In this document: one piece after another, positions 44,856 through 53,000 of the stretch
Layout of the letters: the number at the start of each line of letters is the position of its first letter
Position numbering within the stretch: the first letter of the stretch is position 1
Sequence record: NC_019505.1
DNA: 64,000 nt
Reading direction: 5' to 3' (one strand)
Origin: Escherichia phage wV7
Position numbers and translations under genes: made by a program
The notes under the pieces: generated by a model
The model's input: only the letters and a program-made list of their open reading frames with translations
Databases searched by the model: none
Told to the model about the DNA's origin: nothing

Positions 44856-45098
44856 TTATTCCTTAATTCCTAGTACTTGTTTAAAAGTCTCGTCGTAATC
44901 AAGACTTTGGCCCGTTTGTTCTTTATGTTTGTATATAATATCACTTACTTCTGATAGCATATTTTTATATGAACGAGTTAAAGCAGATTTAAGCACGCTG
45001 TATCTATCAGGAAATTTACCATGTTCATTATAATAAGCTATTGCTAATTCACGGACTGCCTTTTCAGCAGCCTCCATATATTCTTTACGCTTGGTCAT
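44856..45098 (-). CDS. hypothetical protein
   Basis: 80-aa ORF. Confidence 0.45.
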
Positions 45099-45100
45099 TT

Positions 45101-45490
45101 TTAATCCAAAATATTATTAGGCATTGGTTGAACACTCACAAGTTCTTTAAAGAACTCAGTAGAGTCAGGCAATTTAACCATTTCCGGAGCATGCTTACTG
45201 AATTTATGTTTACATTGACGGCATTTATATTCAAGCTCTGGTTTACGCCAGTTAATCAACTGAACTTGTTCAGTACCGCATTCAGGGCAATTAGGAACGT
45301 TTTTAGAAGCTCTTTCACGTCGTTCAACCATAGCCATAATAGCATCCCATGCTGGAGGTTTAAAATCTAAATCGTCGCAGCCGTGAATCTTTCCACGCAT
45401 TTCCATATCATCTTCCTCACCAGCCATAATAATTTTAATTAAACTGGAATTACTTGAAGCTGCAATGTCTTCTAATAAACGCTTTTTCAT
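45101..45490 (-). CDS. zinc-ribbon protein
   Basis: 129 aa; CPECGTEQ...CRQCKHKF four-cysteine motif. Confidence 0.5.
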
Positions 45491-46413
45491 TTCAATACCT
45501 CAATAGCATTACGTAAACCATTTGCTTTGGCGGTTAAAGCCTTAAGAACTTTAGTATGCTCTTCAATTTGTTTTTCAACTTCAGTCAAACGGACATTGAG
45601 ATATTCACGTTCTTCTTTCATAGTATCATTTCCATGATTGGATTTTGGTATAGGTTTAAATTCACTAGGGTCCTTTAATTTAATAACAAATTTAGTTTCA
45701 AACAGTGAAAGACCATAATTCGTATTATCATCAAAGGATTTGACTACATCCATATCAGATAATAACACGCGCAAATTATAAGCCAAAGAACTAATAGTTT
45801 CATTGTGTTTATTAGCTTCGCGTGGTTTCATATACGGAAGATTTTTATATATCTCATGCGGAGCGCAAACGATAATTGACAATTCAAATTGTCCATTCTG
45901 GGACAATGGAATGAATTTAGCCGTAACCCAGTCTTTTACATTCACATTAATAGTACGGTTATCACCATGACAAAACAGTCTACGAGAATGCTTAAAAAGC
46001 ATATTCACGTTATTATTGAATTCGTGTGAAAATTCACTAGCAAATTTTTCTTTACTATCTTTAGAAAACCATTCTTCTAAATAAGTTCTTTTCACGTCGT
46101 TAATAATATTAAATGTAACAACACTAGCATTTGATACATTAGTCTTAATGTAGCTTGGATACATAAATTTTTTAACATTATTAACAGCTATCACAGAAGA
46201 TAGTAATCGGGAACGTTTGAACCACTCGAGCAAAGAACCAAGAGAATGTGAATACGCATTTTGTGTATCTTTACAAATATGGTTTTCCCATCCAATATAG
46301 TCTAAAAAATCACGAAGAATATTATTGATTACTGCTCTGTGTCCGATTTGATAATTACGGTGTTTAGTAATAAGACTGTCAAAATAATCAATATAATGTT
46401 TACGAGTTTTCAT
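45487..46413 (-). CDS. hypothetical protein with C-terminal coiled coil (array member 1)
   Basis: 308 aa; heptad-like C-terminal ~40 aa. Confidence 0.5.
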   Translation of the reverse strand: MKTRKHYIDYFDSLITKHRNYQIGHRAVINNILRDFLDYIGWENHICKDTQNAYSHSLGSLLEWFKRSRLLSSVIAVNNVKKFMYPSYIKTNVSNASVVTFNIINDVKRTYLEEWFSKDSKEKFASEFSHEFNNNVNMLFKHSRRLFCHGDNRTINVNVKDWVTAKFIPLSQNGQFELSIIVCAPHEIYKNLPYMKPREANKHNETISSLAYNLRVLLSDMDVVKSFDDNTNYGLSLFETKFVIKLKDPSEFKPIPKSNHGNDTMKEEREYLNVRLTEVEKQIEEHTKVLKALTAKANGLRNAIEVLK

Positions 46414-46465
46414 GTTCTTCTCACTTGGTTAATGATTTATACTCCGAGCCATCCTTGGCTTTAAA

Positions 46466-47467
46466 TTACTTAATTAACTGTAAAGCTTGTTCAAGACGAT
46501 CAAGACGATTAACGGATTCTTCCCAAATCTTTTTAGCCTGCTCATATTCTTTCTGCGCTTTATTAGAAATTTCTAGAACTTCTTTATAAGCTTTTTCTAG
46601 TGCAATAACTTCTGGACGAATTTCTACCGGTTCAGGTGAATCATCAAGATTATCCATTAGTTCCTCAAGGGTAGTTTCTTCTTTAGGAGTATTCACAATT
46701 TCATCACATTTTTGTTGGTAAATTTCTTTATCAGTAGGTGAATAAGCACATTTCACTTCACGAAGACTAACTACAATTTTATATCCTTCCCAGCCGCATA
46801 TATTCTTAAAAGGATAAGTATGAATATTTTCTACTGTTTCCATACAGCCCAAAACCGCCTCTAATTGATAAGTTATAGTGCTAGCAATTGAGAAAAATTT
46901 ATTAATATTCTTTTGGTTAGCGTTTGGTGTAAAAAATCCATAATTCACAAAAATAGCTACTTTATTTTCATCAAGCTCATATTCTTTTACGATAATCATA
47001 TCAGAAGCCAAAGGATGAATTTGACGATAATCGCCATAACATAATTTAGAAGCTGATTTTAGAATTTGTCCTTTGAAAAGTCTGAAATTACTAATCCAAC
47101 GACGAGTAAAAATATTCTCAGGGTCTTCTTTATTATTAAGATGATAAGAATTAACATCACCGAACCAATTATATCCTACTACATCTTTAGTTCGTTTAAT
47201 TTCTTTCCCAAATTTACTAAGAATATCTCTGTTGACTAAGTATGAAAGAAGACGAGACCCTTTAAAGGTTTTCTTAATGTCATCTTTATCTGTACGACTA
47301 GAAATTTTACGAACTTCATGAATAAATTTGCCGGAAGAAACAATACTTGCATCAGTATTATTGAGCCATTGATTGATAATAGAAATCACACTATTCTTAC
47401 TAGACATAGGTTTAACTTTATCATCAATAACGCTGTTGAACGATTTAATATATTCGTTGCGAGTCAT
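46466..47467 (-). CDS. hypothetical protein with C-terminal coiled coil (array member 2)
   Basis: Start at M11 with GAGGAG RBS; shares W...LF-x-Q-x-LK-x-AS-x-L block with member 3. Confidence 0.5.
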   Translation of the reverse strand: MTRNEYIKSFNSVIDDKVKPMSSKNSVISIINQWLNNTDASIVSSGKFIHEVRKISSRTDKDDIKKTFKGSRLLSYLVNRDILSKFGKEIKRTKDVVGYNWFGDVNSYHLNNKEDPENIFTRRWISNFRLFKGQILKSASKLCYGDYRQIHPLASDMIIVKEYELDENKVAIFVNYGFFTPNANQKNINKFFSIASTITYQLEAVLGCMETVENIHTYPFKNICGWEGYKIVVSLREVKCAYSPTDKEIYQQKCDEIVNTPKEETTLEELMDNLDDSPEPVEIRPEVIALEKAYKEVLEISNKAQKEYEQAKKIWEESVNRLDRLEQALQLIK

Positions 47468-47495
47468 ATTAATCTCCTCAGTAGAAAGTAAGAAC

Positions 47496-47525
47496 ATTAT
47501 ACCACATCCTTGTGGCGAAGTAAAC
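47496..47525 (-). promoter_or_regulatory. T4-type early promoter
   Basis: GTTTAC ... TGGTATAAT upstream of 46466..47467. Confidence 0.6.
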
Positions 47526-48544
47526 TAGTTTAGTGCATTTAGTGCATTGTTCAGTTTAGAACGTTGCTTTGTCAGATTTTGAACCCTTGACTGAGCTTGT
47601 TCTAACACCTTTTCAGCTTCTAGCACTTCATTGGTCGCTTTAACGAGTTCATCATCTACTGCCTTAAGAGACTTCTCAATCGCATCCGCGTGCCATTTTT
47701 CAACAGGTTTAAGACTCGGATTTTCAATAGGAAGAAAATTCACTTTATTAAATTTCCATGCATCTTTATTACCTGAGCTATACATCCAAAATTTAGGATC
47801 GTTTGATGAGCAATTAGATAAATTTAAGTTATCTTGCACTTCCTGCTTTTTCTCTTGCGGGACTTCATCCTTTCTCAAAAAATCGTATTTAAATGAAACG
47901 ATCATATCAAGTTCATACGTTGTTGTATGTTCCCAATTTCGCTCAAAATGAGGTAAAATCTTAGACCGAACAGCGGCAACAACATCCATATACTTAAATG
48001 CTTCTGTCAACTGTGATTTAAGGCATTCACAAATTGAAAGAGAATTTTTTGTATTAGGTTTAAAGCTAATTCGTGCAGTTCTATTATTTTCTTTTAATGG
48101 TCTTACTTCCATCTGAAGAGTATAACCATCAAATTTCAGGTTCTTTAAGTTAATGTCAGAACCTTTTAATCGACTAGCCGTCGACAAAATTTGCTTTAAT
48201 TGTTTACGGAATAGAGCAATAAATCTCCATTCAAGACGGTAATGATTTGGATTAAAAAATCCTGTTGATAAATCAACCTTACTCTGACCAACGCCTTGAA
48301 CAAATAGAGGATTTTTATAATCAATAGTTTTACAGAAATCGGTGAGCTGTTCGCGAGCAGTCATTTGCGTAATATATCCAGCTTTATCAAAATGTCGCAG
48401 CCATTCACTGCTATTCATATACTTAAAGTGAATGGAACTATTAACTCTATCAGGGTCTAAATTATTTTGGCACAAAAATGTCATAACATCACGAGTATAG
48501 CTGGCATTACGAACCATATCTTCAATTTGAGAACGAGTTTTCAT
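47525..48544 (-). CDS. hypothetical protein with C-terminal coiled coil (array member 3)
   Basis: 339 aa; begins MKTR like member 1. Confidence 0.5.
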   Translation of the reverse strand: MKTRSQIEDMVRNASYTRDVMTFLCQNNLDPDRVNSSIHFKYMNSSEWLRHFDKAGYITQMTAREQLTDFCKTIDYKNPLFVQGVGQSKVDLSTGFFNPNHYRLEWRFIALFRKQLKQILSTASRLKGSDINLKNLKFDGYTLQMEVRPLKENNRTARISFKPNTKNSLSICECLKSQLTEAFKYMDVVAAVRSKILPHFERNWEHTTTYELDMIVSFKYDFLRKDEVPQEKKQEVQDNLNLSNCSSNDPKFWMYSSGNKDAWKFNKVNFLPIENPSLKPVEKWHADAIEKSLKAVDDELVKATNEVLEAEKVLEQAQSRVQNLTKQRSKLNNALNALN

Positions 48545-48552
48545 GGTGTTCC

Positions 48553-49440
48553 TTAAGATTTAAGTAAATCAACAATTTTAATTAATTTTTCACGTTCAGA
48601 TTTAGCTTTACTACTCAATCCAGATAGTCTGAATATTTCATCATCATATTGTTGAATAGAAATATTTAGCTCTTCAATTTGCTTATTAAAATAATCAATT
48701 TGTTCAGAATGTTTTTCGTTACTACGAACTGGTACAGGTTTTGTAGGTAATTTAGATGAACTGGATTCATCCGGGCGATAAATTAAAATACAACTTGAAC
48801 CAATTGGACATTTTGCACCAGATGAATATTCTAATGTTCCGGCTTCTTTTAAAACTTCAAAAGCTAAACAGAGATGATGCCCCATATTAACATAATCTGT
48901 AGAGCGAGCTCTGACGTAATAATCATCTCCGCGAATACTAAATTTAAAGCATTTAAGGTCTTCTGTATTATTTGTCTTAAAAATCATTTGTTTATCTAGA
49001 CCTTTAGCTAATCGAGCGCCTAATGCTAATAATCGTCGTTGATTTTCCCACAAATCAGCGATCATTTGGTCAAATGATAATTTCGGCATTAGTCGACCAT
49101 AAAGGTCATATCCTTTATTATAATTGCGAAGGATTTCACTCGCATTAATACGAGACAACGCTCCAATTTTATTAAGGGCTTTCATGATGCGATTAGATAA
49201 ACCCATTCCAGACCCGTTTGTTCGTTGTAAATGTTTATCTAATCCAAACCCAATATCAACTTTAAATTTATCTAAAATTTCAGCATGAACATCTCTGTCA
49301 ATAACATTCAAATCCAAAGTTGGGTTAAATCTATGAAAAAATTTATCTGGCTCTCCACGACGAAGTATAGTCCATTCATTTAATTTTTTATTAACTAAAG
49401 ATTTAATTACTGTATTGACATTATTAATTACTACTGACAT
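48553..49440 (-). CDS. hypothetical protein with C-terminal coiled coil (array member 4)
   Basis: Start at M6; C-terminal coiled coil. Confidence 0.5.
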   Translation of the reverse strand: MSVVINNVNTVIKSLVNKKLNEWTILRRGEPDKFFHRFNPTLDLNVIDRDVHAEILDKFKVDIGFGLDKHLQRTNGSGMGLSNRIMKALNKIGALSRINASEILRNYNKGYDLYGRLMPKLSFDQMIADLWENQRRLLALGARLAKGLDKQMIFKTNNTEDLKCFKFSIRGDDYYVRARSTDYVNMGHHLCLAFEVLKEAGTLEYSSGAKCPIGSSCILIYRPDESSSSKLPTKPVPVRSNEKHSEQIDYFNKQIEELNISIQQYDDEIFRLSGLSSKAKSEREKLIKIVDLLKS

Positions 49441-49451
49441 ATTTTTCTCAC

Positions 49452-49856
49452 TCAATTTTCAATTTTACTAAATACACAGAATATGATGGAAAAGACTATA
49501 TAAGCACTGCATACAGATTGAACTAATACCATTCCAAAGAACCAAACAATATTATCAAACCATGTCTGTTTTACGTCGAAAGGACGTAAACTTACAGTAA
49601 TATTATCGCCTTTTTCTATTGATGAATACATCTCTGGTGAAATATATTCGCTAAATCTATAACCGTCTTTGAGTTCATATACGGCAATAAACGATAAACT
49701 AGACCCCTTTCCTTGAGTTCCTGTAAAGGTATTAACTACAGTAACATCATAATCTTTATAATGCATATAATCATTAATTGCGTAATAACCATATGCAATT
49801 ACTATACATAAACAACATATCAATAAATTCAATCTTTTAATTATCAACTGTTTCAT
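49452..49856 (-). CDS. membrane protein (N- and C-terminal TM segments)
   Basis: 134 aa; hydrophobic segments at both ends. Confidence 0.5.
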   Translation of the reverse strand: MKQLIIKRLNLLICCLCIVIAYGYYAINDYMHYKDYDVTVVNTFTGTQGKGSSLSFIAVYELKDGYRFSEYISPEMYSSIEKGDNITVSLRPFDVKQTWFDNIVWFFGMVLVQSVCSAYIVFSIIFCVFSKIEN

Positions 49857-49911: not shown

Positions 49912-50439
49912 TTATGCGAGTACCGTCTTTAACCGTTCTTCAAACTTCCGAAGAGTATTTTGGCGTTCAGCTCTTTGCTTTTTGTAAGTTTCAATACGCT
50001 CTGAAATGAGAGTGTATCGTTCATTTACTGATTCTTTCATAAAATCAGGAATTTCACGAGAAGCTTTAATCTCATCAAATTTATCAATAACAGCTTGCTC
50101 TTCAGCAATTAAGTTATCATACATCAAAATATCTTTCTTGATGAACTCAATATCTTCTTGAGTTACACGAGATAATTTAGATGCTTTATCCTTTTTGTAC
50201 TGTTCGTTAGTATCACGAGACCAGTGTAATGTACGATTTTTATTCGTATTCTTGTAAATTTCTACAATACCAATCTCATCAATAATAACGATCCAATTCC
50301 AACGGGATTTGTAAATTTGTCCTCCATCAACTGTGATTTCACCTCCGATTGAGATGTCATTAAAGAACTTGCTTTGTGCTTCAGATTTAAATTTACCATC
50401 GTTGTAATTTACCAGGTTGAAAATATCTTTAGCGTTCAT
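49912..50439 (-). CDS. hypothetical protein
   Basis: Start at M21 with GGAGG RBS; track N-terminal extension runs through the promoter. Confidence 0.5.
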   Translation of the reverse strand: MNAKDIFNLVNYNDGKFKSEAQSKFFNDISIGGEITVDGGQIYKSRWNWIVIIDEIGIVEIYKNTNKNRTLHWSRDTNEQYKKDKASKLSRVTQEDIEFIKKDILMYDNLIAEEQAVIDKFDEIKASREIPDFMKESVNERYTLISERIETYKKQRAERQNTLRKFEERLKTVLA

Positions 50440-50903: not shown

Positions 50904-51872
50904 TTATTTCAGAAGAGTAACCTCAGCGATTTCTTCCCAACCGTTTTTGTCGGTCATAATAAAGTCAGCAAGATAAAGAGCAGTACGCAGTGAAACATTG
51001 CGTAAACGATTAACATTGACTTTCATCCATGATAATGCTTTATAAGTTTCTTCATCAGAAAGACCGCGTTTTTGCATCATGTCAGTTGAAAGAATAACAT
51101 CTTCAACCCTGACCATAATTTCTTCATTAGTGTGAACACCCAAATCCAAATAAACTGAGCGGGACACTAGTGCTTGTAAATGTGGAGCAAGTTTAGTACC
51201 ACGGTCTAATTCGCGGTCAATGTCAACGTTTGTGATAAAAACAATCGTTCCTTTAAATTCAAACTCACGCTCAATGCCTTTTTCTTCTAAGTAAGAAGAT
51301 GCAGTGCTCCAGCAGACTTTACGGGTCTCTCCAGTGTCCAGAGCAGCTTTCAGAAGATTAAGAATGTCCATATCAGAGAAAACATCCACATCATCAATCA
51401 AAAGGACAGAATTCTCTTCACGATTATTCCAAAGCTGTTCATAAAGACCGATACCAGAGATTTTACCATTAATGCTTTTATACTCAATGTATCCAATATC
51501 ATTTGCTTTATTTAAAGCTTTATCCAAAGAATACGTTTTACCAATACCTGCCGCACCAGAGATAATTAATGAACGAATGTTTCCGTTAATAATACCATTC
51601 GTCATCATTCCCATAACATTAAATCTTTTATTAATGCGGGTTTTCATATCTTCATATGATTCTTTAACTTCTTCAACTTTTACACCATCATATGAAATGT
51701 CTGATTTGTAAACCCAAACACCGCGACGTTTACCGTCAATTTCAACAAAAACTTTACCATCTCCTTGTGCATCTACCGGAGCATTATCTGGGAACCATTC
51801 ACCTAAGAGCTCAAAAGTTCCAGAGATTTCTTTACCAAAGTAGATACCCTTATTGATAGTTACAGTTTTCAT
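50904..51872 (-). CDS. P-loop NTPase (AAA-like ATPase)
   Basis: Walker A SGAAGIGKT and Walker B VLLIDDVD; ~90-aa N-terminal domain; start at M5. Confidence 0.55.
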   Translation of the reverse strand: MKTVTINKGIYFGKEISGTFELLGEWFPDNAPVDAQGDGKVFVEIDGKRRGVWVYKSDISYDGVKVEEVKESYEDMKTRINKRFNVMGMMTNGIINGNIRSLIISGAAGIGKTYSLDKALNKANDIGYIEYKSINGKISGIGLYEQLWNNREENSVLLIDDVDVFSDMDILNLLKAALDTGETRKVCWSTASSYLEEKGIEREFEFKGTIVFITNVDIDRELDRGTKLAPHLQALVSRSVYLDLGVHTNEEIMVRVEDVILSTDMMQKRGLSDEETYKALSWMKVNVNRLRNVSLRTALYLADFIMTDKNGWEEIAEVTLLK

Positions 51873-51906
51873 TTTATTCTCCAAATCCGTATCAGTTGAT
51901 AGTTGT

Positions 51907-51986: not shown

Positions 51987-53000
51987 TCATTTATAATAAC
52001 TTCGATGGTTTTCAAGATAGACCTTCTCAAGGAAGTCATCCCAGAAACCCATGTCTACTTTTTGCTGCATACCGTTCTTAGAAGCTTCAATAGATGCTGC
52101 TTCTACTTGATCGACCACATCTTCCAAAAACTCTTGAACCGTTTTAAATGGATGTTTACCCAACTTCACGTCGAGAATAAATGGAGCATCTTGAAGTGGA
52201 TAAATCAAGTCGCCAGTTTTGTAAATTTCCAATAGTTGGAGTCCACCACGACAAGCATGGCTCAGAGCTTTCCAGTCAATACCTTCATTGGCTTCAGCCT
52301 TACGAGCGCGTTCACCATATTCAGCATCTAATTTGTTCAGTGACTGCTTAAGCTCAATAAGAGAAAGCGTTGTCTGATATTTACGACCCAATACAGTGTA
52401 GAACGTTTGTGGGCCTGTTTTCTCATGATTATGGAACACCCATTCACAGAATTCGTTTTCTGGAAGACGATGCTTAATATCTTCAACTTTAGTGCGACGC
52501 TGCTTAATAGAACCATCTTCTTGGTAATCAATCCACTGCTCAGGGATTTGATTAACTACTTTCAATACATCGCGTAATGCAGCCAAACGAGAACCCTTGA
52601 CGCCGTATTTAGAAGCTTGCTTGCGGACATATCCTAAATATGATTTCATGTTAGTCGTATAAAAACGATAACGGTTGTCTTGAATAAACTTCCACACATC
52701 AGGCAAATCAGATTTAACCACTAGCTCAGGTGGGGTGTGAAGCATATCTAATGCTACAGTTTCACCATCTGCTGCTAATTTAAAGAAATATTTAAGACTG
52801 TATAGTTCATGGTCAATATCATCTTTAGTGTTTTTAGATGATGTGTTGTTAGTGTTTTTACTCATGTGCTCTTTAACGTTTCCGATAAGAATATCACGAG
52901 CAGGAGGAACAAAGATTTCTTTAAAATCTACATCAGATTCTGGAGTAGAAGTTCCATAAAGATGACTACCAAAATAGCTTTTCATTACTGTTTTCATCAT
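51987..53000 (-). CDS. Pol-beta-superfamily nucleotidyltransferase-like protein
   Basis: 337 aa; N-terminal GSHLYGTSTPESDVDF matches the GS-x(9-13)-DxD NTase signature. Confidence 0.5.
   Translation of the reverse strand: MMKTVMKSYFGSHLYGTSTPESDVDFKEIFVPPARDILIGNVKEHMSKNTNNTSSKNTKDDIDHELYSLKYFFKLAADGETVALDMLHTPPELVVKSDLPDVWKFIQDNRYRFYTTNMKSYLGYVRKQASKYGVKGSRLAALRDVLKVVNQIPEQWIDYQEDGSIKQRRTKVEDIKHRLPENEFCEWVFHNHEKTGPQTFYTVLGRKYQTTLSLIELKQSLNKLDAEYGERARKAEANEGIDWKALSHACRGGLQLLEIYKTGDLIYPLQDAPFILDVKLGKHPFKTVQEFLEDVVDQVEAASIEASKNGMQQKVDMGFWDDFLEKVYLENHRSYYK

Follow-up and report, generated by a model that had tools for sequence, protein, structure and literature searches.

The 64,000-nucleotide stretch of Escherichia phage wV7 DNA analyzed here (NC_019505.1; called the window below) carries four consecutive open reading frames (ORFs) at positions 45487-49440 on the minus strand, and these are the nrdC.3-nrdC.4-nrdC.5-nrdC.6 block of a Tequatrovirus. 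We propose, with a probability of about 0.6, that this array encodes paralogous inhibitors of different host immune proteins that share an oligomerizing or docking helix. The four products would be ancient and strongly diverged paralogs, each built of a small helical bundle at the N-terminus, an α/β core, and a flexible linker that leads to a conserved coiled-coil helix at the C-terminus. We infer that the fast-evolving globular domain of each protein would bind a different immune protein directly and so neutralize it, that the C-terminal helix would supply oligomerization or common docking, and that NrdC.3, NrdC.4 and NrdC.6 would share the anti-defense role of NrdC.5. The four genes are dispensable and lie in a segment, from gene 49 to nrdC.11, that is dense in counter-defense genes.

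The four genes have long been annotated in T4 and are not new. Beyond these known identities, the analysis adds the pairing of a variable domain with a conserved tail, the synteny of the family in distant Straboviridae, a core that may be tail-terminator-like, and the linking of the four genes as one old superfamily, a view that is modestly new. T4 is the reference phage, yet the functions of NrdC.3, NrdC.4 and NrdC.6 are not known, and the shared superfamily makes these proteins specific counter-defense candidates.

Identity of the array

The first-pass annotation of this DNA had described four consecutive genes for proteins of 295-339 amino acids (aa), and the ORFs were found at exactly the limits it gave, separated by gaps of 52, 57 and 8 nt. 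The nrdC.3 orthologue (45487-46413; 308 aa) is 91% identical to T4 NrdC.3 and matches PHROG 1435 (1e-98), as does the nrdC.4 orthologue (46466-47467; 333 aa; 1.5e-167). The nrdC.5 orthologue (47525-48544; 339 aa) matches the Pfam family DUF7235 over its full length (409 bits, E 1.9e-122). The probable fourth and most divergent member, the nrdC.6 orthologue (48553-49440; 295 aa), falls in PHROG 2257 and PF26899. Orthology to the T4 block is supported by both sequence and position. NrdC.3, NrdC.4 and NrdC.5 are 89-96% identical to the T4 proteins, depending on the region, the same gene names occur in the same order in the RB14 and T4 annotations, and the array is bordered by nrdC.2 on one side and nrdC.7 on the other, within the gene 49 to nrdC.11 segment. 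The window DNA has 100% identity to KP869105, E. coli O157 typing phage 7, which is a Tequatrovirus, and the array shares about 94% DNA identity with T2 and T4. Megablast matched the array to 507 phage records, nearly all from Tequatrovirus, and in 460 of them a single stretch contains at least 80% of the four-gene block.

In the Pfam and PHROG libraries used, NrdC.3/NrdC.4, NrdC.5 and NrdC.6 belong to three separate families, which are joined here. The DUF7235 gathering score of 30 bits is passed by NrdC.5 alone among the four; NrdC.3 reaches 13.7 bits in its tail region, below the threshold, and NrdC.4 and NrdC.6 give no DUF7235 match. The third window protein shows no material difference from T4 NrdC.5 (about 92% identity, the same position and a full-length domain match), whereas the first, second and fourth would be distant paralogs below the DUF7235 threshold. 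Homologues of NrdC.4 carry PF26897 (Phage_T4_Y04OP) and those of NrdC.6 carry PF26899 (Phage_T4_Y05B); the family name Phage_T4_Y04OP by itself suggests that the NrdC.4 family may cover NrdC.3 too. No function is described for PF26897, PHROG 1435 or PF26899.

In GenBank records that match positions 45400-49500 of the window, nrdC.3-nrdC.6 and their neighbors are often mis-annotated as "thioredoxin". A thioredoxin domain is present in none of the four proteins or the mislabeled neighbors, and the label has apparently spread from the gene-name prefix nrdC.

Relatedness of the four proteins

Pairwise BLASTP among the four proteins and their neighbors is too insensitive for this family: only the NrdC.3-NrdC.4 pair is significant (25% identity over 165 residues, E 4e-5), and all other pairs are not. 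Profile comparison was carried out with HHalign on family alignments assembled from database homologues and six related phage loci. With full-length proteins, the probabilities were 98.7% for NrdC.3-NrdC.4 (E 3e-16), 93.5% for NrdC.4-NrdC.5 (E 2.4e-7) and 71.7% for NrdC.3-NrdC.5 (E 3.5e-5). With the tails cut, the corresponding values were 98.5% (E 1.6e-15), 92.7% (E 4.2e-7) and 31% (E 5e-4). The similarity persists when the C-terminal helices are removed; it therefore belongs to the globular domain and does not arise as an artefact of the coiled coils. Consistent with these results, PHROG 1435 matches NrdC.3 and NrdC.4 alike. Two resemblances that the first-pass annotation had picked out also proved genuine. 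The internal block common to members 2 and 3 is recovered by the NrdC.4-NrdC.5 profile alignment, which superposes RRWISNFRLFKGQILKSASKL and RLEWRFIALFRKQLKQILSTASRL residue for residue, and the MKTR start of NrdC.3 and NrdC.5 belongs to a longer M(K)TRxxYI motif, which NrdC.4 shares. Judged from these alignments, NrdC.3, NrdC.4 and NrdC.5 are very probably paralogs.

The placement of NrdC.6 depends mainly on structure. No profile comparison of NrdC.6 with another of the families exceeded 17% probability. A merged profile of NrdC.3, NrdC.4 and NrdC.5 gave a weak match to NrdC.6 (13.7%, E 0.002), with residues 62-150 of NrdC.4 aligned to residues 83-152 of NrdC.6, and this alignment pairs equivalent helices in the structure models of the two proteins. 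Two family motifs, FKxSRLLSxxV...L..FGK and ILKxAxKL..GD, have aligned counterparts in NrdC.6: FKGSRLLSYLV..DIL..FGK of NrdC.4 is paired with LNKIGALSRINA.EIL..YNK, and ILKSASKL..GD with LLALGARLAKGLD. In Foldseek searches, the AlphaFold2 (AF2) model of NrdC.4 matches NrdC.3-like as well as NrdC.6 proteins, including the BFVD model of JS10 NrdC.6 (E 3.8e-5, probability 1.00, TM 0.36/0.42; both structures are predicted). The order of elements is identical in the NrdC.4 and NrdC.6 models, namely a helical bundle, short strands, three helices, a hairpin, a long helix, a second hairpin, a linker and the terminal helix.

The diverged paralog family suggested by the first-pass annotation thus stands for NrdC.3, NrdC.4 and NrdC.5, and the profile alignments proposed as a check bear it out for these three even though BLASTP links only the first two. 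NrdC.6 gave marginal sequence scores and is likely, by predicted structure, to belong to the same superfamily; here it was the proposed structure prediction and Foldseek search that supplied the link.

The conserved C-terminal helices

Heptad periodicity was scored over the last 50 residues for all 78 putative window genes with 90 aa or more, giving a background median of 0.29 and a 90th percentile of 0.52. The tails of NrdC.3, NrdC.4, NrdC.5 and NrdC.6 score 0.73, 0.58, 0.77 (the highest of the four) and 0.74, and the only other comparable tails are those of Pin (0.60) and NrdC.8 (0.62). Four neighbors are therefore among the six top scores of 78 genes, a pattern unlikely to arise by chance. 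Compared with shuffles of their own sequences, the segments at residues 263-308 of NrdC.3 (45490-45627), 283-339 of NrdC.5 (47528-47698) and 242-275 of NrdC.6 rise above the 95% null. The NrdC.4 tail is irregular and does not exceed its null (0.61 versus 0.64). In the AF2 model of NrdC.4 (pLDDT 83.7), DSSP nevertheless assigns one 48-residue terminal helix (residues 285-332) preceded by a disordered linker (273-283); the helical region, taken as residues 285-333, is encoded at 46469-46615. The NrdC.6 model (pLDDT 77.8) ends in a pair of DSSP helices, residues 242-271 and 276-294 (48556-48717). A long C-terminal helix with heptad periodicity is accordingly a feature of the family, with NrdC.4 as its irregular member.

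The ends of all four proteins had been described as both heptad-like and charge-rich. The first half of this description holds throughout (0.58-0.77 against the median of 0.29). The second holds for NrdC.3, NrdC.4 and NrdC.6, in which D, E, K and R make up 36-40% of the last 45 aa versus 26-29% of the whole protein, and fails for NrdC.5 (29% versus 27%).

The C-terminal helix is better conserved than the N-terminal part in all four families. Column entropies for helix and N-terminal part, in bits, are 0.36 and 0.53 for NrdC.3, 0.71 and 1.20 for NrdC.4, 0.98 and 1.13 for NrdC.5, and 0.71 and 0.92 for NrdC.6. Between genera, NrdC.6 is 70% identical in the helix versus 44% in the rest of the protein, and its tail motif DDEIFRL is invariant in 22 homologues. 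The last 23 or so residues of NrdC.4 are almost invariant in homologues with overall identity as low as 33%. Solvent-exposed positions of the helix are conserved too, and the terminal helices of all four proteins end in a similar L-x-x-A-h-x-x-L-K motif.

The T4 reference sequence (NC_000866) has a 1-nt deletion near codon 258 of nrdC.6 that replaces the coiled-coil tail by 17 unrelated residues, giving a protein of 275 aa versus the 295 aa encoded at 48553-49440 in the window. Conservation of the DNA continues 3' of the deletion, and nrdC.6 is annotated with 891 nt in the T4D genome of the HIDEN-SEQ study (see below). The deletion is a frameshift specific to that strain or else an error in sequencing.

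NrdC.5 and the case for a counter-defense family

T4 NrdC.5 has been shown to overcome the Dsr1 sirtuin defense. Infection was restored by deletion of dsr1, and on MG1655 carrying dsr1 plating recovered when nrdC.5 was expressed by itself (Srikant et al. 2022, PMC9391042). In the same study, supplying nrdC.5 complemented a T4 deletion clone on cells with Dsr1, and nrdC.5 is called an early gene. The NrdC.5 protein of the window is about 92% identical to this T4 protein. The first-pass annotation had regarded the whole family as of unknown function, which is no longer true of NrdC.5, and had pointed to host-interaction or anti-defense factors, which is borne out for NrdC.5 and would be an extension for the other three. 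Because NrdC.5 is already known to disarm Dsr1, NrdC.3, NrdC.4 and NrdC.6 are good candidates for undiscovered anti-immunity factors.

Other genes of the region have comparable activities. Gp49.2 inhibits OLD (PMC13096335), NrdC.1 inhibits Septu (HIDEN-SEQ preprint), and bas37_0203 inhibits Druantia III (HIDEN-SEQ preprint). The last of these is the NrdC.8 orthologue, judged from its place seven genes after the nrdC.1 orthologue and its length of 528 nt. In the transposon libraries of T4 and Bas37, nrdC.3-nrdC.6 are classed as "Non-essential", with 91-100% of insertion sites hit (HIDEN-SEQ).

A parallel from another phage group is DSAD1, an SPbeta-group phage inhibitor of DSR2 (PMC11087589). 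DSAD1 counteracts a defense-associated sirtuin, an activity of the kind proposed for NrdC.5; the target differs (DSR2 for DSAD1, Dsr1 for NrdC.5), and direct binding by NrdC.5 is a proposal.

Several observations weigh against a family of dedicated immune inhibitors. The effect of NrdC.5 on Dsr1 could be indirect, and for NrdC.3, NrdC.4 and NrdC.6 no target is known. The main text of the HIDEN-SEQ preprint names none of nrdC.3-nrdC.6, and in the one comparison examined per phage the four genes were not significant (adjusted p 1.0 in T4; 0.81 for the NrdC.6 orthologue in Bas37 on CFT073). Searches of PADLOC, NCBIfam and PDB sequence families returned no match: the PADLOC/NCBIfam hidden Markov models (HMMs) gave only weak coiled-coil matches (BrxC, E 0.0027; PgrA domain, E 0.0063), and PDB sequence searches with NrdC.5 and with the NrdC.4 and NrdC.6 profiles gave just designed helical repeats and a ribosomal protein at E 0.33. 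The homology of NrdC.6 is drawn from predicted structures together with a marginal score in sequence comparison. Finally, it is unusual for a protein shaped purely by an arms race to keep its tail better across genera than its globular domain, and this hints at a conserved partner rather than a variable host sensor.

Distribution and rearrangement of the family

Among 50,697 phage records, tblastn matched NrdC.3 in 652, NrdC.4 in 552, NrdC.5 in 580 and NrdC.6 in 740, all of them enterobacterial Tevenvirinae. The presence/absence survey of T-even genomes that had been proposed as a check showed that gene content varies: all four genes are present in Tequatrovirus, Mosigvirus has nrdC.6, nrdC.5 and nrdC.3 without nrdC.4, and Gaprivervirus and Dhakavirus have nrdC.6, nrdC.5 and nrdC.4 without nrdC.3. 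A 71-aa hydrophobic-looking ORF lies between nrdC.6 and nrdC.5 in Gaprivervirus, Dhakavirus and one metagenomic contig, and is absent from the window.

Wider relatives are not detectable by sequence search. When 1.84 billion representatives were searched exhaustively with the NrdC.4 HMM profile, only seven proteins were found, which comprise the NrdC.4 family, three short fragments and one probably NrdC.3-like protein. Foldseek searches of BFVD with the NrdC.4 model reach further, to uncharacterized proteins of 300-370 aa in phages of Yersinia, Pectobacterium, Enterobacter, Klebsiella, Erwinia, Serratia and Acinetobacter, and more weakly to a protein of Aeromonas phage Aeh1 (E 0.024). In Acinetobacter phage Acj61 (Twarogvirinae), the interval from nrdC to nrdC.10 holds two adjacent genes, for proteins of 330 and 304 aa, whose lengths and consecutive accessions agree with two of the BFVD matches. 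Both proteins end in coiled-coil-like tails, and one of them matches the merged superfamily profile (hmmsearch 4.7e-7; HHalign 49.5%, E 1.7e-4). The location of this pair at the same locus argues that the tandem family predates the split of Tevenvirinae and Twarogvirinae, and suggests an old, general Straboviridae module.

Among Tequatrovirus phages, divergence is more rapid in the block than in its flanks (86-98% versus 96-99% DNA identity). The nrdC.3 gene occurs as two allele classes, with more than 90% and about 60% aa identity. In comparison with phage ECO07P3, a replaced patch of 51-80% DNA identity covers nrdC.3 at 46250-45500 in a region that is otherwise 90-99% identical. Phage ACG-C40 has lost most of nrdC.3-nrdC.5 and kept nrdC.6 alone. 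Salmonella phage Manna, which keeps nrdC.3, carries an in-frame fusion of the N-terminal part of NrdC.6 to the C-terminal part of NrdC.4, joined at a shared DEI, and one metagenomic protein is a fusion of NrdC.5 to NrdC.3 with its junction near "NKVN/NNVN". A globular domain that varies, joined to a coiled coil that is conserved, lends itself to domain swaps and tail truncations, for which the natural NrdC.6::NrdC.4 and NrdC.5::NrdC.3 fusions offer a starting point. In the 378-aa NrdC.6 of Shigella phage Sf25, about 83 residues (IRAHSTDY...QIEEL) are duplicated in tandem within the protein.

Alternative explanations

One alternative is that the four proteins form a single hetero-oligomeric complex through their C-terminal helices, with one function of which Dsr1 evasion is one read-out. 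The shared L-x-x-A-h-x-x-L-K ending of the conserved terminal helix would fit such a complex, the conservation of exposed helix positions suggests a specific partner, and the genes are adjacent and mostly kept together (the 460 of 507 records above). However, gene content varies freely, as seen in Mosigvirus, Dhakavirus, Gaprivervirus, ACG-C40 and Manna, and the T4 reference NrdC.6 lacks its tail through the frameshift. In addition, plasmid-borne nrdC.5 by itself rescues the deletion clone, which may retain some of the paralogs. We consider a complex of this kind unlikely.

Equally improbable, in our estimation, is that the family is not primarily anti-defense and instead serves a conserved function, phage-internal or in host takeover, that is tied to a tail-terminator-like core, for example an action on a conserved phage or host assembly, with the Dsr1 effect being secondary. 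The core of NrdC.3-NrdC.6 may resemble that of tail terminator/completion proteins with a lambda gpU-like fold (e.g. 3fz2, 8bcp, 9khy and 6tba). The persistence of the family at the same locus from Tevenvirinae to Twarogvirinae, and a tail that outranks the rest of the protein in conservation, would be expected of such a role. NrdC.3-NrdC.6 nevertheless differ from tail terminators, with which they share no similarity in sequence, by an additional helical domain and by their coiled-coil tail. Nor do they behave as essential late structural genes: all four are non-essential accessory genes in T4 and Bas37, with near-saturating insertions, and are lost in natural isolates, and the early expression class of nrdC.5 (PMC9391042) misfits a morphogenetic role.

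The same possible resemblance allows a speculative elaboration of the immune-inhibitor proposal, which we rate as less likely still. The family might derive from a tail-terminator-like structural fold, and its members might be decoys made before the real structural proteins. Each globular domain would fill the pocket of a TPR/Avs/Dsr-type host sensor of conserved phage structural folds, the coiled coil would keep the bound sensor in a non-signaling assembly, and NrdC.3, NrdC.4 and NrdC.6 would be inhibitors of further sensors.

The least tenable explanation is that the four proteins are unrelated, similar in size by chance and compositionally alike through convergently acquired coiled-coil tails: the single significant BLASTP pair and the lack of a significant profile score for NrdC.6 would agree with it, but the globular-domain similarity that remains without tails, the structural matches with the same element order, and the four neighboring tails within the top six of 78 genes leave it very improbable overall and largely refuted for NrdC.3, NrdC.4 and NrdC.5.

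Start sites and neighboring genes

A longer nrdC.4 ORF, reaching 47497, is possible, and nrdC.6 has an alternative TTG start at 49455. A sigma-70-like promoter match (TTTACT-17-TATAAT, with TG) lies just 5' of the nrdC.4 start on the minus strand (47496-47524). As a sequence match, it fits the start at 47467 and not the longer ORF, and is consistent with the former; in a promoter and terminator scan of the region, counts were not above those in shuffled sequences.

NrdC.2 is 129 aa in the window and 104 aa in T4, with a weak zinc-ribbon match in the window protein, and a patch of its gene at 45050-45200 has 37% DNA identity to phage ECO07P3. On the other side of the array, nrdC.8 (49912-50439, minus strand; 175 aa) encodes a protein with a charge-rich heptad-like tail (score 0.62). 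NrdC.8 was considered as a fifth member on account of this tail and was rejected, since HHalign gave at most 1.2% probability against every family. Further along, NrdC.10 (50904-51884) has weak P-loop AAA/STAND-like matches below the Pfam thresholds, and NrdC.11 (51987-53000) gives a match to the RlaP nucleotidyltransferase family. Acj61 likewise has the two genes annotated, separated by about 0.9 kb that holds two small ORFs, and this co-occurrence suggests that they may work together.

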